Positions 8,893 to 31,078 of a stretch of DNA of 64,000 nucleotides are shown one piece after another (the stretch's first letter is position 1; every line of letters begins with the position of its first letter). Source of the DNA: a virus (lineage: Duplodnaviria > Caudoviricetes); IMG/VR virus record IMGVR_UViG_3300020050_009513, positions 12,597-76,596 of that record, one strand, 5' to 3'. The translations under genes were made by a program, and so were the position numbers. The notes under the pieces are model-generated. The model was given only the letters and a program-made list of their open reading frames with translations. It was not told the origin of the DNA and did no database searches.

Positions 8893-9155
8893 TTTACGGT
8901 TACCTGTTTCTCCGACAAGGCTTTTCCAACCGGCGCGAAGTAGCCGACCCACTTTTGAATGTTTGAATTTACTCTGTGCTTTACCCATTCTTCCGCCATT
9001 CTGTCGATTTCAGTTTGGCGAAGGAAGGCTTCTCCAGCCTTCTTCCCCGCCTCGTCATATTCAGATGCCTTAGCGGTAGAAATCCCCGCGAGTACGAACA
9101 TCAACAGCAGGAACGTTAATCTTAAGACCCAATTTGTCAACGCTGTTCCCAACAT
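8880..9155 (-). CDS. secreted or membrane hypothetical protein
   Basis: AAGGAGG SD; signal-peptide-like N-terminus; overlaps the 3' end of the ClpP-like gene. Confidence 0.6.
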   Translation of the reverse strand: MLGTALTNWVLRLTFLLLMFVLAGISTAKASEYDEAGKKAGEAFLRQTEIDRMAEEWVKHRVNSNIQKWVGYFAPVGKALSEKQVTVKWNF

Positions 9156-9864
9156 CAAAGCCTCCTTGGGGTTGATTTTTTACTAGTAAAATCAAAGAAT
9201 CTGCAAGGCCGTCATTGATAGCATCTTGAGATTCAAGCCAGTATTCGCTTTCCAAACGTGCCTTAAACTCTTTATAGTCAATGCCAGAACGTTTAGCTAC
9301 TTCCATATCCATACGATCAACTAGACGAGAGAAAGCTCCCAATTGACCGGACATCTGTTCCATAGTACCTTGAACCCCGCCACTGGCCGGATGAAACATA
9401 AGTACACTACCCGGAGTCATGTAGCGGGTTTTGCCTACCTGGTGAATCTGAGCTGCCATAGAAGCGCACAAACCTTCACATACGGTATGAATAGTAACTC
9501 CAGAATTTTTCATGAAGTTAATTAGTCGAGCACCTGCCAGAACACTACCGCCAGGACTGTTCAATACAAGGTAAATCTCATCCTCACCTCGAGACGCAGC
9601 CTCAATGGCTTGCAAAGTAAGGTCTACTGTCTCGTCTACAATGGGGGTATTTAGGTAAATAACTTGGTCACCGTTTACACGGGCCGTTTTAGTTTTTACT
9701 TTTTTATCTTTAGTCAAATCCGCTGTTGCGGTTTGCTCAATTTTCAAAAGAGGTTCGGTAGTCTCTTTAGACTCGGTGTCCCGGCTTGTAAAAATTGCCG
9801 TAGCCACAAAAGCTACACCCAAATAACCGACAATAGATCCAATCAATAGCTTGTTCAGTTTCAT
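9070..9864 (-). CDS. ClpP-like (S14) serine protease with N-terminal TM anchor
   Basis: LNSPGGSV, ASMAA and MFHP motifs; AAGGAG SD before MKLNK; hydrophobic residues 5-25. Confidence 0.85.
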   Translation of the reverse strand: MKLNKLLIGSIVGYLGVAFVATAIFTSRDTESKETTEPLLKIEQTATADLTKDKKVKTKTARVNGDQVIYLNTPIVDETVDLTLQAIEAASRGEDEIYLVLNSPGGSVLAGARLINFMKNSGVTIHTVCEGLCASMAAQIHQVGKTRYMTPGSVLMFHPASGGVQGTMEQMSGQLGAFSRLVDRMDMEVAKRSGIDYKEFKARLESEYWLESQDAINDGLADSLILLVKNQPQGGFDVGNSVDKLGLKINVPAVDVRTRGDFYR

Positions 9865-10309: not shown

Positions 10310-10755
10310 TGTCTTCTAATGTTTACGAAGTTATTTCTATTGATGATCTCCGAGAGCAGTACAAAGAGAAAATCAAAGCTAAAGATATCAAAGAGTTTGC
10401 TGCCGTGCAGCAAAAGCTTATTGAAGATTTATTGCTTCGTAACAAAGCTTTAGAAGATAAGCTACAATCTGCAGAGAGCATCCTTAAGGGTTTACAAAAA
10501 CCTTCTGGCTTGGTTAATATTATGTCTGAAGAAGAACTCATCTGCGTAGAACAAATTCAAATCCTCAAAGGAAAGTCTGCTCAACGTGAGCTTTCTCTTG
10601 ATGAAGTTAAACGCTTAGACATTCTCATTAAGAATTTACGTCTTATTCGAGATAAGTCCACCGAAGCCATCGACGTTACAGATTATTCTGATATGAAGGA
10701 GGCCGATCTTGTCGCACTTATCACCGGAACAGGAAAAGGTTCAGAAGAAGGCTAA
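10309..10755 (+). CDS. possible terminase small subunit
   Basis: helical 148-aa protein directly before terL; positional call only. Confidence 0.45.
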   Translation: MSSNVYEVISIDDLREQYKEKIKAKDIKEFAAVQQKLIEDLLLRNKALEDKLQSAESILKGLQKPSGLVNIMSEEELICVEQIQILKGKSAQRELSLDEVKRLDILIKNLRLIRDKSTEAIDVTDYSDMKEADLVALITGTGKGSEEG

Positions 10756-12193
10756 GGAAACACTCTGGCGCAAAGCCAGTATTGCTAGCTGGAAACTCGA
10801 TGTTAATCAAAAAGAAATGTATAAGTTTGCCAGAGAGAAACCGGACAAAATTATTGTCATTGGATCTTCTCGTCAGTTAGGTAAGACCTATTTCCTTGTA
10901 ACTCTGGCTTTAGAGGAGTGTCTCCGGACCCCGCATGCCATTGTTAAGTTTATTGCTCCCAAAGTTCGGGACATTAAGCGTATCATTGCCCCGCTCATTC
11001 GGGAAATCACTGACGACTGCCCCAAAGATCTACGGCCTTCCTATAAAACCCAAGAGAACATCTTTCGTTTTCCTAATGGAAGCGAGATCCAGTTAGCTGG
11101 GACAGATAATGGACATGCCGAGTCCATCCGGGGTAACAAAGCCAATCTTTGTATTATCGATGAGGCTGGATTCTGTAATGATTTAGCCTACATCGTAAAT
11201 AGTATTTTAATTCCTACGACAACAACAACGGGTGGAAAGATCATTATGGCATCTACTCCCTCCAAGTCACCCGACCATGACTTCATGCAATTTATGAAGC
11301 AGGCTGAAATTGAAAATCGATTCATTAAAAAAACAATCTTTGATAACCCGCGTCTTACTAAAAAAGACATTGATGACCTAGCAGAAGCCATTGGTGGATA
11401 TGAGTCTGTAGATTTTAAACGAGAATATCTAGTAGAAATCATTACTTCCATTGATGACGCAGTTGTTCCGGAATTTAATTCTGACGTTAAGCCTGAGATT
11501 ATCAAAGAATGGGAGCGACCTGCCTTCTATGATGCTTATGTTGGGATGGATATCGGTGTAAAGGACATGACTGTTGTCCTATTTGGTTACTACGACTTCC
11601 TTACTGCCAAACTTATCATTGAAGACGAGGTTGTTCTTAGCGGACGTAGTATGCTTACCGATAATCTGGCTGCAAAAATTGCAGAGACAGAAGCTCGGCT
11701 TTGGTTTAATAAGTATACAGGAGAACCTAAGACTCCGTTCTTACGCGTATCAGATAATAATAACCTAGTTCTATTAAACGACTTAGCAGGGTCTCACGGT
11801 CTTACTTTTCTCCCAACTCGCAAAGACGACAAGGATGCGGCTCTTAATAATATGCGTATGCTTATTCGAAATAAGCGAATTATCATACACCCACGCTGTA
11901 AAACGTTAATTTTCCACCTTGAGTCCGCCATCTGGAACAATGATCGTACTAAGTATGTCCGTAGTGCAGTAGATAAAAGTCACTACGATGCCGTGGATGC
12001 TCTTGTCTACTTGTGTCGTAATATTAATTATAATAAAAATCCCTATCCAGCAAACTATGACTATTTAGGTAAGGGTCCGATGTTCCACAGAGATCCACTC
12101 CCCAAAGGGGATAATCAATTTGAGCAAGCTTTGAATAAGATGGTCAAAGAACGCAACCCTTTCGGAAGTACGCGAAAGCTCAAGAGATATTAA
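10709..12193 (+). CDS. terL: terminase large subunit
   Basis: SRQLGKT Walker A, IIDEAG Walker B, VGMDIG and HYDAVDA nuclease motifs. Confidence 0.95.
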   Translation: MSHLSPEQEKVQKKAKETLWRKASIASWKLDVNQKEMYKFAREKPDKIIVIGSSRQLGKTYFLVTLALEECLRTPHAIVKFIAPKVRDIKRIIAPLIREITDDCPKDLRPSYKTQENIFRFPNGSEIQLAGTDNGHAESIRGNKANLCIIDEAGFCNDLAYIVNSILIPTTTTTGGKIIMASTPSKSPDHDFMQFMKQAEIENRFIKKTIFDNPRLTKKDIDDLAEAIGGYESVDFKREYLVEIITSIDDAVVPEFNSDVKPEIIKEWERPAFYDAYVGMDIGVKDMTVVLFGYYDFLTAKLIIEDEVVLSGRSMLTDNLAAKIAETEARLWFNKYTGEPKTPFLRVSDNNNLVLLNDLAGSHGLTFLPTRKDDKDAALNNMRMLIRNKRIIIHPRCKTLIFHLESAIWNNDRTKYVRSAVDKSHYDAVDALVYLCRNINYNKNPYPANYDYLGKGPMFHRDPLPKGDNQFEQALNKMVKERNPFGSTRKLKRY

Positions 12194-12205: not shown

Positions 12206-12214
12206 GAGGTGTTT

Positions 12215-14227
12215 ATGTCAGACTCGGTGTATTTCGCAGCCAAGGAAGCGGATAAAACAGCCGGAATTTTGCTAAGTAAGGCAAATGGCTGGTATAATCA
12301 ATTACAAACTAACGGGTATCTCGACAAAGTTCGTGAGATGTGGTTAGCCTACCATGGAGCCTATCAAACAGGTCCGGGTGCTGCCCACATGATTACCTTT
12401 GGTGGTGAGCAAGGTGAGCTAGCACAGATGGCGGTGAACCATTTGCGATCTATCGCCGATAATATCATCACTATGATTACATCCAGCCGCCCTGCATTTC
12501 AGGCTCGTGCTACAAATGGTGATAGTAAGAGTATTGTACAAGCTACGCTTGCAAATAACCTACTTGATTACTACATGCGTGAAAAACGTTTGGAGAAATA
12601 CCTTCGTACAGCCATTCAATATGCTGTAGTATTAGGTAGCGGTTATGTTAAAATGGAATGGAACTCCACTACTGGAGAAATTTACGACACAAATGAAGAG
12701 ACTGGCGCACCAATTTATGAAGGTGACGTTGCGTTCTCTAACCTGTCTCCTTATGATGTTGTATTTGATACAACTAAAGAGTCGAGTCTTGGTCATGACT
12801 GGGTACTAACACGTACCTTTAAAAATAAATTTGACATTGCAGCTAAGTATCCCGAACTTGAAGGTCGTATTAAAGGTCTTCAGACTAAAAATCAATTGCT
12901 CCGTTATCGTATGGACTTGATGGCTTATGAGGATACAGACGATGTTCCCGTATATGAATTCTATCACCGTCGTAGCGAAGCTTTGCCAGATGGTCGATAT
13001 CTTTTGTTCCTAGAAGATAATCTAATTCTTATTGATAGTCCAATGCCTTATAGACAGTTACCCGTGTATCGTGTATCACCTAGCGATATCCTTGGTACTC
13101 CTTACGGCTATACTCCGATGTTCGACCTGTTACCCATTCAAGATGCGGTTAACAGTTTGTACAGTACTATCCTGACTAACCAGCATACGTTTGGTGTACA
13201 GAACATCTATGTTCCTCGTAATGCCGATATTCAATTGAAATCTCTTGAGGGTGGATTGAATATTATTGAAGGTAATAGTGGTGCGGGAAAACCTGAACCT
13301 CTAAACTTTACACAAACTCCTAAAGAAGTATTTGAGTTCCTTCAAATGCTTGAGCGACAGATGGAGATTGTATCGGGAGTCAACTCGGTTGCTCGTGGTA
13401 ACCCGGAAGCTTCGCTTAAATCCGGATCTGCTCTTGCCATGGTGCAATCTATGGCACTGCAGTTTATTTCTGGTATTCAACAACAGTACATTCACTTGAT
13501 TGAGGACGTTGGTACAGGTCTTGTGAATATGCTTAAGGACTTTGCTGTTGTCCCTCGCATTGCTATTATTGCAGGGGAAACTCGTAAGCACTACGTAGAA
13601 ACTGAATTTACTGGTGACGACCTTAGTATGGTAAGCCGTGTAATTGTTGACGTAGGAAATCCTATTAGTAAAACTACTGCCGGACGTATGCAGATGGCGA
13701 CGGAGCTTATCCAATATGGTATTGTATCTACTCCTCAAGAGTATATGACAGTACTTAATACTGGAGATTTGAGCGGTATTACTGATGATACTCAGGATGA
13801 GCTTGATAATATTCGTCGCGAAAATGAAACTATGCTTAATGGCGGTCAAGCCATTGCTATCGGTATTGATCAACACAGTGTACACATTAAACGACACAAA
13901 GCCCTTCTTTCCGATCCAGTTATTCGTTCTCAACCTGGAGTTAGAGATCAAGTCCTTGCTCATATTATGGAGCACGTAAATCTTTTACGTACTGTTGACC
14001 CTTCTCTTCTTGCAATTATCGGAGAACAACCAATTGGACCTATCGGAGGAACGCCTAACAACCCAGTTCCCGGTCCACAGAATCAATCTATGCCTGTAGA
14101 TCCGGCTAGCATGAGTCAGGAACAACAACCGTTACCTAATATGCCATCCATACCTACAGTACCTGCTGAAGCTCTCGCCAATCCCGAGGCTCAGCAGCAG
14201 GCTATGGGTAATGTAGCACCTCAGTAA
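12215..14227 (+). CDS. portal protein (podovirus type)
   Basis: about 670 aa after terL; helical, with SGSAL motif and P/Q-rich tail. Confidence 0.85.
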   Translation: MSDSVYFAAKEADKTAGILLSKANGWYNQLQTNGYLDKVREMWLAYHGAYQTGPGAAHMITFGGEQGELAQMAVNHLRSIADNIITMITSSRPAFQARATNGDSKSIVQATLANNLLDYYMREKRLEKYLRTAIQYAVVLGSGYVKMEWNSTTGEIYDTNEETGAPIYEGDVAFSNLSPYDVVFDTTKESSLGHDWVLTRTFKNKFDIAAKYPELEGRIKGLQTKNQLLRYRMDLMAYEDTDDVPVYEFYHRRSEALPDGRYLLFLEDNLILIDSPMPYRQLPVYRVSPSDILGTPYGYTPMFDLLPIQDAVNSLYSTILTNQHTFGVQNIYVPRNADIQLKSLEGGLNIIEGNSGAGKPEPLNFTQTPKEVFEFLQMLERQMEIVSGVNSVARGNPEASLKSGSALAMVQSMALQFISGIQQQYIHLIEDVGTGLVNMLKDFAVVPRIAIIAGETRKHYVETEFTGDDLSMVSRVIVDVGNPISKTTAGRMQMATELIQYGIVSTPQEYMTVLNTGDLSGITDDTQDELDNIRRENETMLNGGQAIAIGIDQHSVHIKRHKALLSDPVIRSQPGVRDQVLAHIMEHVNLLRTVDPSLLAIIGEQPIGPIGGTPNNPVPGPQNQSMPVDPASMSQEQQPLPNMPSIPTVPAEALANPEAQQQAMGNVAPQ

Positions 14228-19481: not shown

Positions 19482-19969
19482 TGATAAAAAAATATGCGGC
19501 TATAAATAATAATACAGTGACTCAAGTAATAGATATTGACAGCGAGTCCGATGATTTTCAATTAACAGCTAAACAACATCAAATGCTAATTGACATTGAT
19601 TTCCTAAATCCTACGCCTACTGTTGGGTATGTATTAAACGGAAATAAACTTGAACTTCCGCAAGGTTACACCGATCGCGAAATGTACGAAGAGCACCTAA
19701 ATGACCTTAAGGCTACTTTCGGCACGGCCTTGGCTCGAAAGTGTACAAATAAAATTGGAGCTAGAAACAAAATCCTAAATAAAACTGGAACTCAAGTCAC
19801 TACGCTATTAAATGTTTTACTTGGAGTGCGGTTTCTTTTAGAAGGCGGCGCTCTTGGCACAGCTCGCGCAAGTTGTATACAGTTAAAAGCAGTATATAGC
19901 GAATATAGTGACGTTTTTGATTACGTTGTAAATGAAATTAATATATTTGAACAAAACAATAGTCTATGA
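19481..19969 (+). CDS. fibre assembly/chaperone-like protein
   Basis: KKYAAINNNTVTQVI N-terminus typical of tail-fibre assembly proteins; tentative. Confidence 0.45.
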   Translation: MIKKYAAINNNTVTQVIDIDSESDDFQLTAKQHQMLIDIDFLNPTPTVGYVLNGNKLELPQGYTDREMYEEHLNDLKATFGTALARKCTNKIGARNKILNKTGTQVTTLLNVLLGVRFLLEGGALGTARASCIQLKAVYSEYSDVFDYVVNEINIFEQNNSL

Positions 19970-20472
19970 GTAAGATATTTATAGGATTTTCATATCCTCA
20001 TAAATTTAAAATTGGAGCTGCAGCCATAGCTTGGTGGCTGTCTACTCCATATTCTCACGTGTATATTAGATTTGAAAGTGAAACTATGCCGTCTTCGGTG
20101 TATCATGCGGCTCATGGCATGGTACATTTTACAAGTTACGCTAGATTTAAAGAGCAGAATAAATGTGTACATGAGTATGAGGTAGCTGTTACTACTACAC
20201 AACGTCGGCAAGCTTTAATACAATGCATGGAACTAGCTGGAATAGAATATAGTACTACCGAGCTAGTGAATATTCTAATGACTGATTTATGTAATTCATT
20301 TGGCCATAAGCTAAGTACTACAAACTCTAAAGGTTACATATGCTCTGAGTTAGTCGGTGAATTTTTAATTCAACTTGGAGCAACTTTCAATAAACCTACC
20401 CATTTATTAACTCCGCTAGATATAAAGCAAGGATTGACTACGTGGCAAGAATCACTCTTATACCGGACATAA
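19966..20472 (+). CDS. permuted papain-like (YiiX/NlpC-P60 type) amidase
   Basis: YSHVYI (His) precedes YICSELV (Cys). Confidence 0.75.
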   Translation: MSKIFIGFSYPHKFKIGAAAIAWWLSTPYSHVYIRFESETMPSSVYHAAHGMVHFTSYARFKEQNKCVHEYEVAVTTTQRRQALIQCMELAGIEYSTTELVNILMTDLCNSFGHKLSTTNSKGYICSELVGEFLIQLGATFNKPTHLLTPLDIKQGLTTWQESLLYRT

Positions 20473-20556
20473 AAGATGCTGGGCACAAAAAGCTCATCGC
20501 TAAAAGCAAACGACATAATTGGCTTATAGCCCTCTGTTCGCTTCAATTTGTTTTAT

Positions 20557-20571
20557 TAACATATTTAATTA
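20557..20571 (+). promoter_or_regulatory. late-promoter motif, copy 4
   Basis: TAACATATTTAATTA. Confidence 0.65.
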
Positions 20572-20582
20572 TGAGGTAACTA

Positions 20583-21182
20583 ATGGATTTTTCAAAACTA
20601 AAGCAGCTAATGCAAAATGCTGGTACTGCAGTTTCTGATTGGAAACAAGGTATGGATAAAAATGCAGATCAAGCAATGGAAGACATGGCTCGTTCTTCTG
20701 TTATGGTAGGTAGATCACAGGATTATCAACCTACAGAACAAGAAATGTTGGATGCCCGTAAAATGGTAGAAGATTCCATGAGTATGGGTACGGGTGCTGT
20801 AGGCTCTGTAAAGATGCTTGGTGCCGGTGAGAATGCTGCCCAAATGCTTATGCGTAAAGCTGCAGAAGAAGCTGGTACGGGCGTTAAGATTGCAGGTAGA
20901 GGCAAGTCTGCTGCGGAAATGATTAAAGAAGGTCAGGCAGCAAAAGCTGCAGCTAATCCTCCTGTCCCTAAAAAGACAGCCGCCGAACTCTACAGAGACG
21001 CTAAAGCAAGCGGTAAGTCGGTAATGAATATTGATGAGATGCGTGCAAACCCTGTTAAAGAACCTATGAATATGGGTAAACTGCAACAAGAAGCTACTGG
21101 TCTTGTTGATGATGTCTCAGAAAAACTTAAATTTCGCCGTCTCCAAGAACTAATGGAGCTTAATAAGCTCAAAGGTAAGTAA
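20583..21182 (+). CDS. putative internal virion protein
   Basis: M/A/K-rich; FSKLKQLM at N-terminus and FRRLQELM at C-terminus. Confidence 0.6.
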   Translation: MDFSKLKQLMQNAGTAVSDWKQGMDKNADQAMEDMARSSVMVGRSQDYQPTEQEMLDARKMVEDSMSMGTGAVGSVKMLGAGENAAQMLMRKAAEEAGTGVKIAGRGKSAAEMIKEGQAAKAAANPPVPKKTAAELYRDAKASGKSVMNIDEMRANPVKEPMNMGKLQQEATGLVDDVSEKLKFRRLQELMELNKLKGK

Positions 21183-21301
21183 TGGCTGATTATCCTGGTT
21201 CTAATAGTGAAGCTACTATGGAAGGTAACGAGAAAGAAACCTACGCAAAAAAGGTTGCTCGTTTCTATAAGCTTCGTAAGCTATTGAAAGAGAAGAAATA
21301 A
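21182..21301 (+). CDS. 39-aa peptide (below track cutoff), putative internal virion protein
   Basis: TAATG coupling on both sides; ends RFYKLRKLLKEKK. Confidence 0.65.
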   Translation: MADYPGSNSEATMEGNEKETYAKKVARFYKLRKLLKEKK

Positions 21302-21900
21302 TGGATGATACATACGCACGTCTACTAAAATCTATTCTCGAAAGTAAAGAAGGGCGCAGTGAGACTGTATACCCTGATGAGAAGGGTAATCCTACTGTTG
21401 GTGTTGGGACTAATCTAAACAGCCCAGAAGGTCTGCGGGATTTAGAACGTGCCGGTATGTCTCCAGAGCGCGTTCTAGCAGGAGAGAGTGTTCCTACTGA
21501 AATCCAGGACGCTGCTATGAACAGTGCCATTAAGCGTAAAGAGGCAATGCTTCAAGATAAACTTCCCAATGCTCAGCTTAAAGAAAATGAGCGCGCTGCT
21601 ATTATGTCGCTTATGTACAATAGCCCAGCCCTGGTTGGGCCTCGTCTTACTGAGATGCTGAACAAAGGCGATAAAGAATCTGCAGCTAAAGAGATTCTTC
21701 TAAACTCTAATAAAAATAAAAGTCCCGGCCTTGCTAGCCGACGTATAGAAGAGAGCGCGATGTTCCGTGGAGATAATAGCTTGCCACCTATTAACATGGA
21801 GGAAGAGGCTAATCTTAAGGGTACTCTTAGTGGCATTGAGAATAAAAACGAAAAAGAACGCGTATTTAAGCGTTTATCTGAGTTATTACGGAGTAAGTAA
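21301..21900 (+). CDS. GH24 (T4-type) lysozyme, probably virion-associated
   Basis: E-x8-D-x5-T triad (EGRSETVYPDEKGNPT), GLASRRIEE; C-terminal FKRLSELL. Confidence 0.85.
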   Translation: MDDTYARLLKSILESKEGRSETVYPDEKGNPTVGVGTNLNSPEGLRDLERAGMSPERVLAGESVPTEIQDAAMNSAIKRKEAMLQDKLPNAQLKENERAAIMSLMYNSPALVGPRLTEMLNKGDKESAAKEILLNSNKNKSPGLASRRIEESAMFRGDNSLPPINMEEEANLKGTLSGIENKNEKERVFKRLSELLRSK

Positions 21901-22748
21901 TGGCTGGGCCTATTTCGTCAAAACGTGTATTTAAACTTACTGAAGACTACTTTAAAGCTATAGCTGATCGTGCGGCTAGTAGATCTCATGCAACAGCGGT
22001 TCCTATTTTTGCAGATGATACTATAAAAAATAAAGCTAAAGAAATGATGAGTGAGGAGACTGTTACTAGAATCAATCCTACCACACAGGAAAAAGAATAC
22101 CTTCTATTTAGAGGACCTTCTGAAAAAGATATTACCAATCATATGAAAGATGGTAAATTTATTAGTCAACAAGCCTCCAGTTGGACAACTAGACCGGATA
22201 CTGCTAGTGGGTATGCTAATAGTCATTCTGCTAACCTAGAGGGTACACCAATTGCAGCATGGGTACCAGAGTCCAAAGTAAAGAATTTCTTACCTGCTAA
22301 TTTTGAAAAAGCTTCTGATGTTCCTGCGCATAGTGAAGTTATTGTTGATAGTGTAAATCTTCCATTTGATACTTTTAGTAACCATAGAATCGATAAAAAA
22401 ATGCCATTTGATCAATCTATTGGTAAGCTATTTGGAAATCCTAAAAAGTTAGCGGCTATTGCTCCTCTGTCAATAGGATCAGAAACATTAGATGCTGCTA
22501 AAGATTTAGCTTCTCAATACGTACAAGGTAAAGATTGGGTATCTGAAAAACTTGCACAGCAATTAAATCTCACTAAGAATTCAGAAGTAGAAAAACAAAT
22601 TAAGAATGTAACTGATATTGCAGTAGATCCCACTATGTTAATTCCAGGTGTCGGTGGTATAATGACGGGTCCTGCTCTAGAAATGTTGGCAGAGTCTAAT
22701 AAAAACAGCTTTTCTAAGATAAAAAACTTATTAAGTAATAAAAAGTAA
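21900..22748 (+). CDS. ADP-ribosyltransferase-fold protein (R-S-E type)
   Basis: LLFRG, ASSWTT...TASGYA and HSEVIV in the expected order; C-terminal FSKIKNLL. Confidence 0.65.
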   Translation: MAGPISSKRVFKLTEDYFKAIADRAASRSHATAVPIFADDTIKNKAKEMMSEETVTRINPTTQEKEYLLFRGPSEKDITNHMKDGKFISQQASSWTTRPDTASGYANSHSANLEGTPIAAWVPESKVKNFLPANFEKASDVPAHSEVIVDSVNLPFDTFSNHRIDKKMPFDQSIGKLFGNPKKLAAIAPLSIGSETLDAAKDLASQYVQGKDWVSEKLAQQLNLTKNSEVEKQIKNVTDIAVDPTMLIPGVGGIMTGPALEMLAESNKNSFSKIKNLLSNKK

Positions 22749-22751
22749 ATC

Positions 22752-22766
22752 TAACATATATTATTA
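22752..22766 (+). promoter_or_regulatory. late-promoter motif, copy 5
   Basis: TAACATATATTATTA. Confidence 0.65.
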
Positions 22767-22843: not shown

Positions 22844-23809
22844 ATGTCTGACTCTGCTGCTGCAGCCGCTAGTGCTGCGCCCGCTTCCACTGGTGCCGAA
22901 TCTACCGGCGCTGAATCCCAAGAACTTGCTGCTGAAGGTACTGAAGGCATTATTGAAGATGACGCTTCAGATGTACTTGCCGAAGAAGCCAAGGCTACCG
23001 AGGAAGCCCTTAAAAACCTCAAACGCAAATATAATGTTAAGGCTAATGGGAAGTCTCGCGAAATCGAGCTTGACCTGTCTAACGATAAACAAATCCAAGA
23101 ATACCTATCTAAGGCCGCTGCAGCTGACGAGAAATTCGAAGAAGCTGCCAACATGCGTAAGGCAGTTGAAGAGCTTGTACGAGAGCTGAAAAGCAATCCT
23201 AAGGCTATTCTGAGCCACCCTTCGATTGGTTTAGATCTTAAGACATTTGCCCAAAGCATCATGGATCAAGAGCTGGAGGATATGTCCAAGACTCCTGAGC
23301 AGAAGCGTATTGAGGAAATGGAACAAAAGCTTAAACAATACGAAGAAGACAAGAAAAAACTGGAAGAAGAGAAAACTACGGCTGAACGGGCTCGTATTCA
23401 AGAAGAACAGTTTCAAAAGCTGGATGAACAAATCACTGATGCTCTGTCGAAATCTGAACTTCCTAAGTCTCCTTATGTACTTAAACGTATTGCTGACACT
23501 ATGATTGAGGCTGTTAATCTGGGGTATACAGACGTATCTGTTGAGCAAATTCTACCCTATGTAGAACAGCAAATCGTAGGTGAAATCAATAGGTTATTCG
23601 AAGAAGCTCCGAGCGCAACTGCAGGCAAACTTATGGAAAAGTTAGTCGGTAAAAAGAACCTAGATTCTTACCGCAAAGCTCGTGTTTCTAAAGCTAAAAC
23701 CACAGCTTCTGCTTCTACAGTTAAAGATTCGGGTGCTTCCTCTAAGACTGCTGAGAAAAAAGAAGACGTTAAACCTGTCCGATTTAAGGACATGTTCGGA
23801 CGTTTCTAG
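22844..23809 (+). CDS. capsid scaffolding protein
   Basis: acidic disordered N-terminus and coiled coil, directly before MCP. Confidence 0.8.
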   Translation: MSDSAAAAASAAPASTGAESTGAESQELAAEGTEGIIEDDASDVLAEEAKATEEALKNLKRKYNVKANGKSREIELDLSNDKQIQEYLSKAAAADEKFEEAANMRKAVEELVRELKSNPKAILSHPSIGLDLKTFAQSIMDQELEDMSKTPEQKRIEEMEQKLKQYEEDKKKLEEEKTTAERARIQEEQFQKLDEQITDALSKSELPKSPYVLKRIADTMIEAVNLGYTDVSVEQILPYVEQQIVGEINRLFEEAPSATAGKLMEKLVGKKNLDSYRKARVSKAKTTASASTVKDSGASSKTAEKKEDVKPVRFKDMFGRF

Positions 23810-23814
23810 AACGT

Positions 23815-23829
23815 TAACATATAGTTATA
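23815..23829 (+). promoter_or_regulatory. late-promoter motif, copy 6
   Basis: TAACATATAGTTATA. Confidence 0.65.
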
Positions 23830-23975: not shown

Positions 23976-25229
23976 ATGGCTGAATACGGTGGCGCGAATA
24001 ACATGGCAACCCTGAACGGGTTGTTTAAAGAACGCTATGCTGATAAAATGGAGCGTCTGATTCCTGATGGAAAGAAGCTCTTGAATGAAATCCCCTTCAT
24101 CTCGAAGGACAAACAACCCGGTAATGCTTATCACCAGCCCGTAGTTTTGGGTATGGAACATGGTGTTACTTTTGCTGATGACACCGAAGGTGCATTTGAG
24201 TTGGCAGCTCCTATCGCTGGTCAAATCAAAGATGCAGTTGTCAAAGGTTACCAATTGGTTCTGCGTTCGGTTCTGTCATACAGTGCCGCTTCGCGCGCAA
24301 TGGGTCCTGGCGATCGCGCTTTCGAAGATTCGACTAAGTTCTTGGTTGGAAACATGCTGGATTCTATTTCGAAGAAACTCGAAATCGAACTTCTGTATGG
24401 TCAAATGGGTTACGCTGTAGTTACCAATGCTGAAGCTGCTGCTGCTGGCGTTGTTATCGAACTGAACGCTGCTGACTTTGCTCCCGGTATCTGGGCTGGT
24501 GCTGAAGGTATGAAACTGGACGTTGTACGTACTGGTGCCTTGGTTCCCACTCTGTCGGGTGTCAATGCTATCACCGTTTCTTCAGTTGATTTGACTGCTC
24601 GTACCATTACTGCGGATCTCCCGGCTGCTTTGGTTGCTGGCGATGTTCTGTATCACAAAGGTGCTTTCGGTAAAGAATTTGCTGGTATCCACAAAATCCT
24701 GACCAACACTGGTACTCTGTTCGGTATCTCGGCTGCTACCTACACTCTGTGGAAAGGTTCGGCTTTTGCTCCCGCAGTTACTTCGGTATTGTCGTTTGCT
24801 ATCATGCAGCAAGCTATCAGCCAAGGTGTTGCTAAGGGTCTGGACACTGACGTAATGGTCATGGTTAACCCCGGTCACTGGGACGATTTGCTCACTGAGC
24901 AAGCTGCTCTGCGCATGTACGATTCTTCGTACAAGTCGGACACTGCTGAAAGCGGATCGAAGTCGATCAAATTCCATAGCCAAAACGGTATGGTTGAGAT
25001 CACTCCCTCGATTTACGTTAAAGAAGGCTACGCTTACGTACTCTGCGTTGAAGACTGGGTTCGTGTCGGTTCGACCGATATCACCTTCAAACGTCCGGGT
25101 CAAGGCGATAACTTCTTCCGTGAACTGGAAGACCACGCTGGTTTCGAACTGCGTTGTTACACTGACCAGGCGATCTTCTGTAGTAAGCCCGGGCGCTCGA
25201 TAATCATTTCTAACTTGAAAGTATCGTAA
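23976..25229 (+). CDS. major capsid protein (HK97 fold)
   Basis: 417 aa after scaffold; strong codon bias; AAGGAG SD; terminator follows. Confidence 0.9.
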   Translation: MAEYGGANNMATLNGLFKERYADKMERLIPDGKKLLNEIPFISKDKQPGNAYHQPVVLGMEHGVTFADDTEGAFELAAPIAGQIKDAVVKGYQLVLRSVLSYSAASRAMGPGDRAFEDSTKFLVGNMLDSISKKLEIELLYGQMGYAVVTNAEAAAAGVVIELNAADFAPGIWAGAEGMKLDVVRTGALVPTLSGVNAITVSSVDLTARTITADLPAALVAGDVLYHKGAFGKEFAGIHKILTNTGTLFGISAATYTLWKGSAFAPAVTSVLSFAIMQQAISQGVAKGLDTDVMVMVNPGHWDDLLTEQAALRMYDSSYKSDTAESGSKSIKFHSQNGMVEITPSIYVKEGYAYVLCVEDWVRVGSTDITFKRPGQGDNFFRELEDHAGFELRCYTDQAIFCSKPGRSIIISNLKVS

Positions 25230-25260: not shown

Positions 25261-25289
25261 GCCGGGGGTGCAATGCTCCCGGCTTTTTT
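25261..25289 (+). terminator. intrinsic terminator after MCP
   Basis: GCCGGG.../...CCCGGC stem followed by TTTTTT. Confidence 0.85.
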
Positions 25290-25968
25290 ATTTTACAAAT
25301 CTATTTTTCTTCCAGTTGTCCTTGGCCCACAGAGGTTGAAGATTAGTATAGTGTGTAGCTTTTAGAAACTGCTGTCTATTTGTTAAATCAAAGCTAGATA
25401 ATGGAATAATATGATCAATATGCCAACCAGTTAAGTTATGATTTTCCCAAGTCATTCCGGGCTGCCATTTTGATTCTATATACAATTTAAATTGCTCTAT
25501 AGAACAGCCTAGATCGGCAACAGCAGATCCTTTTTTTGTATTATTTTTTATACAGTTAGCAATGCGTGCTCTAAGTAAAGCTTTAAGTCTATATTGTAAA
25601 TCAGTTTTCTTTTTGTCTACGTGGTATCGACTACGTCGAGCTTTTACTTCAGGACGCGAATGATACTCTTTCTTTTGTGCGGCAATATGCTCAGCATTAT
25701 CATCCCTATACTTAGCCTTACGCTGAGCTATCTTTTCTGCATTCTTTTTATCATACTCTTTACTACGAGTACGTACCGCATCTCTGTTTGCCTGCTTGTA
25801 GGCATTTGTTTTAGCTTTAATCTCTTCTTTGTTCTCTTGATATTTAGCTGCAGATTTGGTTTTACGACAAGGCTTGCATAGGCTATCAACACCAAAAGCC
25901 CCCATAGCTTTCTTATGAAAAGCTTCGAGAGGCAGAGATTGTTTACAGCACCTGCATACCTTGGTCAT
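25288..25968 (-). CDS. HNH homing endonuclease with N-terminal CxxC zinc finger
   Basis: CRCC...CKPC; WHIDHIIP...NLQPLWAKDN. Confidence 0.85.
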   Translation of the reverse strand: MTKVCRCCKQSLPLEAFHKKAMGAFGVDSLCKPCRKTKSAAKYQENKEEIKAKTNAYKQANRDAVRTRSKEYDKKNAEKIAQRKAKYRDDNAEHIAAQKKEYHSRPEVKARRSRYHVDKKKTDLQYRLKALLRARIANCIKNNTKKGSAVADLGCSIEQFKLYIESKWQPGMTWENHNLTGWHIDHIIPLSSFDLTNRQQFLKATHYTNLQPLWAKDNWKKNRFVK

Positions 25969-27427: not shown

Positions 27428-27808
27428 GTGATTTCTAGGGCTGAAGTTCTTATGGGCCGTGATAAAGACTATCCGTTGGATAAAGAGCAAGAAGCAAACC
27501 TTGCAATCCTGCTGGAACGTGTTAATAAGCTTAGGGCTCTATATAACAAACCAATGACTGTCACTAGCGGGTACCGCCCTGCTGCTATCAATGCCGGCGT
27601 AGCTGGTGCTGCTAAGCGTTCTAATCACATTCTGTGTGCTGCCTGTGACTTTAGGGACAGTGATGGTGCTATCGACGCCTGGTGCCTAACTAACCTAGAT
27701 AAGCTGGCAGAAATCGGCTTATGGCTGGAATCTCCTGACCATACGCCTAATTGGTGTCATGTGCAGATCTTTCCTCCCAAGTCAGGTAATCGGGTATTTA
27801 AACCTTAG
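27428..27808 (+). CDS. peptidase M15 family endolysin
   Basis: TSGYRP, SNH, CDF and HVQ; GGAGG SD before GTG. Confidence 0.85.
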   Translation: MISRAEVLMGRDKDYPLDKEQEANLAILLERVNKLRALYNKPMTVTSGYRPAAINAGVAGAAKRSNHILCAACDFRDSDGAIDAWCLTNLDKLAEIGLWLESPDHTPNWCHVQIFPPKSGNRVFKP

Positions 27809-28467
27809 TCAATATAGCGAAAGACCAATCCTTTCAAAGACTTCATCTTTCCACGACATACTGCAGAGATACTACTTCGGTCGCAATTAAGTTCTGCTGC
27901 GGCATCCTGAATACAATCATAGGTTTTACCATTAGTTTCACAGTAGACTTTACGACGAGTGGGTGAAGGTTTACCCCAGAATTTGCTTTTCTCTCCGGAC
28001 CAAAGCTGAGAAAGGTGAACTTTTTCCTCAGCAGTACGAGGGCGAAGTTTTTTTCCGGTCATGGCTTTTCGTTTAGCTTCAATTTGCTCTGGAGACTGTT
28101 TGTGTCCTAAGGTATGTTTATTTCCTAAAAGAGCCTTACTAATTTTATTACGAGTTTCAATTGTAATCTCAAAAACCCCCCCTCCATACGATTTATTATA
28201 TCCATATATAGGATCAATACTCTTATAATTGCGAATAAATTCTTGTTCTTTACGATTAAGCTCTTCTAGAGATTCTGCGGCGGCAATACGTTCAAATAAA
28301 AAACTATCTTCTCCATATTTAATCCAAGCTCTCTGTAGATGTTCATTAAAATGAGTACCTTTTCTCAGATAATATCGATGATTAGCCCAGCGACGAGCTA
28401 ATGTAGAAGAGGTTTGTCCAATATAAACTTTATTATTGATTTGATTTGTAATTTTGTAAATAAACAT
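27805..28467 (-). CDS. GIY-YIG homing endonuclease with NUMOD-type C-terminal domains
   Basis: FIYKITN...VYIGQT; C-terminal ISAVCRGK helix-turn-helix. Confidence 0.9.
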   Translation of the reverse strand: MFIYKITNQINNKVYIGQTSSTLARRWANHRYYLRKGTHFNEHLQRAWIKYGEDSFLFERIAAAESLEELNRKEQEFIRNYKSIDPIYGYNKSYGGGVFEITIETRNKISKALLGNKHTLGHKQSPEQIEAKRKAMTGKKLRPRTAEEKVHLSQLWSGEKSKFWGKPSPTRRKVYCETNGKTYDCIQDAAAELNCDRSSISAVCRGKMKSLKGLVFRYID

Positions 28468-30676: not shown

Positions 30677-31078
30677 ATGACTAAAATCGCTACACTTCTT
30701 AGACTTCTGCAATTGTTTGCCCACAATGCACATAATATGGCGAGTGGGCCTACATTTTTTGCAGACCATGATCACCTAGGAAGTCTGTATCCTCAATATG
30801 AGGAACAGTATGATAGCGTTATTGAGCGTATGCTAGGCCTGGATGAGCAACCTAATCTAGTAGAAATCACTCTACAGGCAGCACAAGGAAGTTCGGCAAT
30901 GACACTTGAGATGCCCTTTCAAGAACTAGTAGAAGCTGAATCTTTGTTAAGAGAAGAAATTGCTATCTACTTGGCCACTGCTCAGTGCACTGAGGGAACA
31001 AAACAATTACTTGGTGAAATCTCTAACCAAAGTGAAATGCGTCAATACAAACTAAGACAGAGGATTAAAAATGGCTAA
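30677..31078 (+). CDS. ferritin/Dps-like four-helix protein
   Basis: HNAH...G..F..DH..L...Y......D...ER pattern. Confidence 0.7.
   Translation: MTKIATLLRLLQLFAHNAHNMASGPTFFADHDHLGSLYPQYEEQYDSVIERMLGLDEQPNLVEITLQAAQGSSAMTLEMPFQELVEAESLLREEIAIYLATAQCTEGTKQLLGEISNQSEMRQYKLRQRIKNG

Follow-up and report, generated by a model that had tools for sequence, protein, structure and literature searches.

The principle of a short loading peptide is already known from the capsid targeting sequence (CTS) of phage T4, P1 Dar, the HK97 protease tail, CpmB and the encapsulin peptides. To our knowledge, the selection of head proteins for injection has been worked out in detail for a few systems only (T4, P1 and the giant phiKZ-like phages), in which propeptides are cut by the head protease; in T4 the prohead protease cleaves off the CTS, which stands at the N-terminus. 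The cargo-loading peptides of encapsulins are short, terminal and modular, act without proteolysis and are carried by enzymes encoded beside an HK97-fold shell, and the T7 transglycosylase gp16 is a peptidoglycan-cleaving ejection protein. The internal proteins of T4 are diverse apart from the conserved CTS, which can also load foreign proteins, GFP for example (PMC3012670; PMC5512222). In the 80alpha scaffold, an 11-residue amphipathic helix and a basic hook make up the last 16 residues and bind beside the N-arm helix of the capsid protein, and this helix-and-hook tail is also present on the unrelated SaPI1 protein CpmB (PMC5644958). Phage heads are known or predicted to carry ADP-ribosyltransferases (ARTs) and polyvalent proteins as cargo, and the MuF and polyvalent proteins offer variable enzymatic modules, ARTs included, whose genes are neighbours of the portal gene and which, by prediction, enter the head and are delivered together with the DNA (PMC5512222; PMC5576092). 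Here we describe a four-gene cassette of an uncultured virus (an IMG/VR record of 76.6 kb, 91% complete), located in a stretch of 64,000 nucleotides, the window, to which all coordinates refer unless a relative is named; its otherwise unrelated products carry one and the same short peptide, the tag, at their termini. The reading to which we give slightly better than even chances, by analogy with the systems above, is that the tag would be a docking or address peptide loading proteins into the phage head.

The cassette consists of four genes on the + strand (20583-22748), enclosed between a late-promoter-like motif (TAACATATTTAATTA, 20557-20571, +) and the gene of a scaffold-position protein ending in RFKDMFGRF (22844-23809, +). 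The promoter-like motif is an exact match to TAACATATWN4TA, of which the window contains 10 copies against 0.2 expected by chance, and further copies stand at 22752 before the scaffold gene and at 23815 before the gene of the major capsid protein (MCP). All three junctions of the cassette are TAATG, with one-base overlaps. Pairwise BLAST between the four products gave a best E of 0.1, the top match between the second and the fourth being the tag itself. In these respects the preliminary description, made from the letters of the window, was accurate: it had recognised four coupled, unrelated proteins ending in FRRLQELM, FYKLRKLL, FKRLSELL and FSKIKNLL followed by Lys-rich tails, a further copy at the start of the first protein, a late promoter belonging to the cassette, and the position before the scaffold gene. 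When its strict pattern, F.[KR][LI]..L[LM], was run on the genes called greedily across the entire 76.6-kb genome, six matches were obtained, of which five fall in the cassette; the sixth, in a ClpP-like protein, was discarded as the artefact of an over-extended open reading frame (ORF), whose true start is MKLNKLL.

Gene 1 (20583-21182, +) codes for an Ala/Gly/Met-rich protein of 199 residues that starts with MDFSKLKQLMQ and ends with KFRRLQELMELNKLKGK; it has no known domain and no Pfam or PHROG match. It is tagged at each end (FSKLKQLM, 20589-20612, +; FRRLQELM, 21132-21155, +), and in its only three close homologues both tags are conserved, the N-terminal one being invariant. Gene 2 (21182-21301, +; 39 residues, ending RFYKLRKLLKEKK) had been described as little more than the motif. 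This proved mistaken, as residues 1-27, which precede the tag (FYKLRKLL, 21263-21286, +) and a final KEKK, copy the N-terminus of the MCP, with 14 of 27 residues identical and a score of 59 against a background of -4.9 +/- 7.6. The copied stretch includes a helix predicted at residues 10-20 of the MCP N-arm. Since the third codon positions of the two sequences are saturated (9/27 identical), it is at the protein level that the likeness is maintained.

The pair of sequences concerned is 21182-21262 and 23976-24056, and similar peptides are encoded in the relatives (L055:3738-3845, L079:809-964, L021:7659-7781). They constitute a conserved family of 35-60 residues that reproduces the initial 20-27 residues of the corresponding MCP, each member resembling the MCP of its own genome, and that keeps the MCP-invariant residues N8, L13, K18 and Y21 ahead of a Lys-rich tail with the tag.

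Gene 3 (21301-21900, +; 199 residues, ending VFKRLSELLRSK) is, by its sequence, a GH24 phage lysozyme, in agreement with the preliminary description. Residues 15-151 match PF00959 (1.7e-12; 48.2 bits for a gathering cut-off of 22.3) and phrog_7, and in an alignment with solved lysozymes E17, D26 and T32 fall on the ..EG.., ..D(D/E).. and ..T(I/V)G.G positions. The roles of these Glu, Asp and Thr residues are presumably those of their counterparts in T4 lysozyme. The tag (FKRLSELL, 21865-21888, +) follows the enzyme after a linker of about 35 residues, and in homologues with 71% and 38% identity the terminal tag is retained and the linker is changed.

Gene 4 (21900-22748, +; 282 residues, ending SFSKIKNLLSNKK) combines a domain at about residues 40-160, a module at about 170-270 and the tag (FSKIKNLL, 22710-22733, +). 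It was studied by phmmer against 1.8 billion representatives, alignment, an AlphaFold2 (AF2) model, Foldseek and VIA-align. Phmmer found relatives of the 40-160 domain embedded in multidomain proteins of 500-2400 residues, and AF2 models the domain at a pLDDT of about 90. In VIA-align, every one of its best rows is an ART (KptA, Z 6.8; the Rhs toxin TreX, 6.1; diphtheria toxin, 6.1; Arr, 5.9), and the alignment contains conserved LFRG, SSWT and (E)xEV(I/L)V motifs that resemble an R-S-E set, the homologues carrying E-x-E and gene 4 H-S-E, with the second Glu only. These matches are middling, with Z below 8 and a Foldseek E of 0.009 or worse, and no Pfam ART model matches the protein. Fold and motif set lend moderate support to the ART announced in the preliminary description, taken as an ART-like fold and a probable ADP-ribosyltransferase. 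One homologue of the enzyme domain, P0002, has no tag. The C-terminal module (22407-22709, +) shows a conserved QLNL(T/S)..DPxN.IPG.GG signature (QLNLT..DPxxxIPGxGG), includes a Gly-zipper-like hydrophobic segment ahead of the tag, and recurs at the C-terminus of small proteins in other phage lineages (P0029-P0064; L099:5981-7285). These proteins start with MS[KR]FxxLxKxLG, which is an N-terminal version of the tag, and have varied middle domains, one of which is ART-PolyVal. The module may be a second, larger element for trafficking or membrane insertion.

The spread of the tag was evaluated in relatives collected through the MCP, which amount to about 95 related uncultured phage loci, about 70 of them distinct, each taken with +/-9 kb. 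A profile built solely from the five tag copies of the window, with a match counted at a score of 14 or more, recognised the C-termini of 20 of the 160 pre-scaffold genes (12.5%) and of 33 of the 1384 other genes (2.4%; Fisher p 6e-8), where pre-scaffold designates, loosely, any gene between a recognised structural gene and the scaffold gene, a set diluted by fibre genes. Internal 22-mers matched at a rate of 0.4%, composition-preserving shuffles of the tails yielded 1.1 +/- 1.0 matches instead of the 20 observed, and N-termini were enriched as well. The preliminary description had expected the motif to be enriched at termini in homologous loci: this is the case for the profile, whereas the literal pattern is not enriched (1/166 against 2/1523), nor is a slightly relaxed form of it. 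A motif-free test, based on the best ungapped tail-to-tail score within genomes, is noisy and weakly positive in comparison with other genes (p 0.015) and not significant in comparison with shuffled tails.

Altogether, 119 tagged proteins were found, distributed over 74 unrelated sequence clusters and 55 loci, and 115 of them share the strand of the MCP gene, which holds 72% of all genes (p 1e-12). They are often small (median 94 residues) and basic; eight are tagged at both ends, and 25 of 35 C-terminal tags end at most two residues from the C-terminus. The family consensus is [KR]-F-x-K-[LI]-K-x-L-[LM]-K-K, corresponding to a basic amphipathic helix of 9-11 residues; the only AF2 segment bearing on its helicity, in gene 4, is of low confidence. 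Many of the matches among the other genes plainly represent the same tag, carried by small late proteins that are encoded at further places in the operon. In many relatives the portal gene is directly followed by the tagged genes and these by the scaffold gene; the order portal, tagged lysozyme, scaffold is found in L071, with similar arrangements in L024, L026, L015, L016 and L018.

The proteins that carry the tag change rapidly. Relatives whose MCP is 72-75% identical have none of genes 1, 3 and 4 in common, so that even close relatives differ in nearly all of their cargo. In the cargo clusters of the relatives, 58 proteins, nearly all of them tagged, were scanned; four lysozymes, three transglycosylases, two ART-PolyVal proteins and a peptidase were recognised, together with weak 'DNA pilot' matches, and PHROG scans of 20 larger tagged proteins returned almost no annotation. 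The preliminary description is supported in that many carriers of the tag are unrelated and fast-changing proteins of the head module; the tag is, on the other hand, confined neither to the locus nor to C-termini. A sister lineage has a different common tail, ..RKKxMGY, borne within one genome by proteins without homology in their bodies.

Two uncharacterised families were also encountered in the relatives. The members of one, 59-72 residues long (L049:6857-7036, L077:3515-3715, L082:4622-4813, L046:16952-17140), start with the tag (M.F.KLKK.L) and end with ..PSAYASAW(I/V)VK.YK.RGG.Y; those of the other start with MPAKSKAQ.R.M and end with the tag.

The model we propose attributes to the tag the role of a procapsid-docking peptide, because a terminal peptide is the sole constant part of diverse late proteins of the head module. 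Displayed at a free terminus, the tag would bring unrelated late proteins into the procapsid during its assembly, with the scaffold core, the inward-facing side of the capsid protein or the portal as the docking site. It would stay on the cargo uncleaved, since no S78 protease was found and the sole ClpP-like gene codes for a membrane-anchored protein and is located on the opposite strand. The cargo would next be carried inside the head and exit together with the DNA, after which the ejected lysozyme would cut the peptidoglycan locally and the ART-like enzyme would modify host targets. Binding of the tag, encapsidation and ejection are what we infer from the motif and its distribution; lysozyme, transglycosylase, ART and peptidase are types of cargo that fit ejected proteins, and the different tail of the sister lineage would be expected of a signal that co-evolves with its receptor.

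The T4 CTS of internal proteins IPI-III and Alt is likewise a terminal peptide that is the sole common part of diverse, fast-changing proteins (PMC3012670), and Alt is a packaged and injected ART (PMC5512222), an ART-like enzyme being also among the tagged proteins here. In contrast with the CTS, the tag occurs at either end, has no evident cleavage motif and is not accompanied by any S77/S78-type prohead protease that we could find; moreover, the head genes of this phage are of podovirus type and not of T4 type. The comparison with the CTS is one of layout. The parallel with 80alpha and CpmB is one of architecture, as here too an amphipathic helix of about 11 residues and a K-rich end occupy the extreme C-terminus, and in gene 2 the tag is fused to a replica of the N-arm helix, where the 80alpha tail docks beside the N-arm helix of the capsid. 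The tag (F-x-K-L-K-x-L-L) is, however, not a copy of the scaffold tail of this phage family (R-M-K-D-F-F-G), and its carriers are enzymes and many small proteins rather than size-determining scaffolds. With encapsulins the system shares a short terminal peptide on cargo genes placed next to the gene of an HK97-fold shell, but encapsulin shells are DNA-free compartments, whereas the present virus packages DNA and possesses terminase and portal genes; the motif is unrelated, and N- as well as C-termini are used. As in the MuF and polyvalent proteins, the ART-like domain of gene 4 has its relatives inside multidomain proteins; the constant part is nevertheless a helix of 9-11 residues and not a portal-binding domain of about 250, and the cargo is encoded by separate small genes instead of one giant polypeptide. 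No Phage_Mu_F domain was detected by Pfam in the four products, among which only the lysozyme domain of gene 3 was recognised. The ejection proteins gp7, gp16 and gp20 of P22 and gp14-16 of T7 are head-internal, encoded in the structural operon and incorporated during scaffold-dependent assembly; the cargo set here differs in being hypervariable. We know of no shared terminal motif described for the P22 and T7 ejection proteins, and none was found for them in our searches of the literature on capsid-targeting and cargo tags; our literature searches also brought up no description of the present motif. New in this family are the motif, its use at either terminus, the apparent lack of proteolysis, its occurrence in a mid-sized podovirus-like group and the peptide that mimics the N-arm.

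Several facts weigh against loading into the head. The relatives share ancestry and are not phylogenetically independent samples, the consensus logo is partly circular, as its members were picked by the same profile, and the tagged share of the pre-scaffold genes, in a set diluted by fibre genes, is limited to the 12.5% given above. Many tagged proteins are encoded outside the portal-scaffold interval. No cultured relative was found: the closest phage record is unannotated and its MCP is only 30% identical. The link between the tag and the C-terminus of the scaffold that the preliminary description had drawn was not borne out either. The scaffold tails of 67 relatives give the consensus R-M-K-D-F-F-G, and this profile matches the C-termini of 3/160 pre-scaffold and 9/1384 other genes at a threshold of 8, which is not significant, with a weak enrichment on the cargo tags at a threshold of 6; the tag as a copy of the scaffold tail was hence abandoned for want of a clear match. 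The Lys-rich tails of genes 1-3 coincide with purine-rich, Shine-Dalgarno-like runs for the next gene, and translation may therefore dictate some of the tail sequence. Finally, cationic amphipathic terminal helices are also the classic form of membrane anchors, and the cassette stands directly after a likely lysis pair.

The likeness to anchors and the neighbouring lysis pair belong to the alternative that the tag is a membrane-targeting helix of the MinD or FtsA type, which would tether late proteins to the inner membrane, either for lysis or for membrane-associated assembly, or keep ejected effectors at the site of entry. We consider this unlikely, while granting it a real chance. The tag is indeed short, cationic, amphipathic and helical and occupies a free terminus (no other 11-mer of the gene 3 product is as amphipathic, its muH being 0.95, and the tails have a net charge of +3 to +7), it is found at either terminus as membrane anchors are, it presumably resembles the tails of MinD and FtsA in a general way, and in the cassette it comes after an amidase-like enzyme with a small hydrophobic protein and, in gene 4, after a Gly-zipper-like segment. 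Mere amphipathicity would, however, not explain residues that are strongly preferred at fixed positions (F in 42/58, K in 40/58, L or I in 51/58); the tags also cluster from portal to scaffold where no lysis genes are nearby (L071, L015, L016, L018), the ..RKKxMGY tails of the sister lineage are poorly amphipathic, and an ART with cytoplasmic targets has no obvious need of an anchor.

The charge of the tails raises another possibility, which we regard as improbable: they could be generic basic extensions that bind the packaged DNA or join small proteins in an internal core. Lys-rich ends, the small size and basic character of many carriers, and the double tag of gene 1, which a bridging subunit would also have, would agree with it, but the signal is lost in shuffles that preserve composition, and the conserved aromatic and Leu positions point to a contact between proteins. 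This explanation overlaps in part with loading by a docking peptide, since such proteins would still be head-internal. The absence of any common function, the similarity being due to translational coupling, base composition or local duplication, is on the other hand largely refuted, and we give it hardly any weight. Besides the Shine-Dalgarno-like runs under the Lys tails, it can invoke the literal pattern that is not enriched in the relatives. A ribosome-binding-site role does account for part of the tail, but neither for the hydrophobic core, which is encoded 12-36 nucleotides upstream of the stop codon, nor for the N-terminal copies, nor for gene 4, which bears the tag though no translationally coupled gene follows it; the DNA coding for the tag differs among the five copies, and the shuffle and position controls oppose an effect of composition.

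A more specific form of the docking proposal, in which the loading peptide would be independent of a protease and active at either end, as the phage equivalent of the encapsulin peptides, its receptor would be at the MCP N-arm and the N-arm-copy peptide would be an adaptor or regulator of loading, is put forward tentatively, and we would sooner wager against it than for it. If it were true, 10 residues would suffice to package arbitrary proteins in an HK97-fold phage head. The rule of selection appears to be simpler than in the systems described in detail, as it would rely on about 10 residues at either terminus, without sign of cleavage, in a large uncultured family with a T7-like order of head genes. 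The change of cargo between close relatives is the pattern expected for counter-defence effectors. Should head loading be confirmed, the injected proteome of uncultured phages could be listed from sequence, and a minimal tag would be at hand for the packaging of foreign proteins. Could the peptide that mimics the N-arm, which is a separate element, reveal where the tag or the scaffold docks?

The structural operon (+) has the order terminase (large subunit, 10709-12193), portal (12209-14227; phrog_156), fibre-like genes, amidase and 45-residue ORF, cassette, scaffold and MCP. The candidate amidase (19966-20472, +) is of the permuted papain-like type (atlas features 0.94; TM 0.80 between its structure and the Peptidase_C92/NlpC-P60 clusters). 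The 45-residue ORF (20442-20579, +), directly upstream of the cassette, has a hydrophobic C-terminus, and in many relatives the two genes are kept together just upstream of the cargo cluster or the scaffold gene; they are likely an endolysin-holin lysis pair in the middle of the structural operon. The scaffold-position protein (321 residues, with an acidic N-terminus) is conserved in 68 distinct relatives, has no Pfam or PHROG family match and is called a scaffold because of its position, directly upstream of the MCP gene, and its composition. The MCP (23976-25229, +; phrog_14242) has an HK97 fold in its AF2 model (pLDDT 85; Foldseek E 1e-9 to phage capsids), and encapsulin shells are among the structural matches of this model. 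Megablast of the region against phage records gave no matches; the record with the 30% identical MCP, which is the sole near-full-length MCP match, possesses the K-D-F-F scaffold tail and no cargo cluster.

Other genes of the window deserve mention. A ferritin/Dps-like protein of 133 residues is encoded in the structural operon (30677-31078, +; PF00210 1.5e-8, above the cut-off). In L030, L038, L042 and L052 its homologues belong to the pre-scaffold cargo cluster, and its proximity to the gene of an HK97-fold shell is reminiscent of encapsulin cargo; its tag-like tail falls inside the Pfam ferritin match and was not counted as a tag. A ClpP/S49-like protease (9070-9863, -; PF00574 9e-30), divergent from the late operon, has an N-terminal hydrophobic anchor and was rejected as a tagged prohead protease, its motif being the ORF artefact mentioned above and its gene lying on the other strand from the operon. 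In the search for a prohead protease of S77/S78 type no PF04586 match was obtained, and the PF03420 search was silent even in control genomes and hence uninformative. After the MCP gene, two minus-strand ORFs, one HNH-like (25288-25968; ..HIDHIIPL..NLQPLW..) and one GIY-YIG-like (27805-28467; start MFIYKITN), look from their motifs like homing endonucleases. The MCP gene, which is intact in the window, is split after residue 55-120 or so in L003/L021, L004/L022, L005/L027, L006/L028, L015 and L016 by an insert with a GIY-YIG-like ORF of 201-260 residues (start M..G.IY.I.N), probably a group I intron or a homing-endonuclease insertion.

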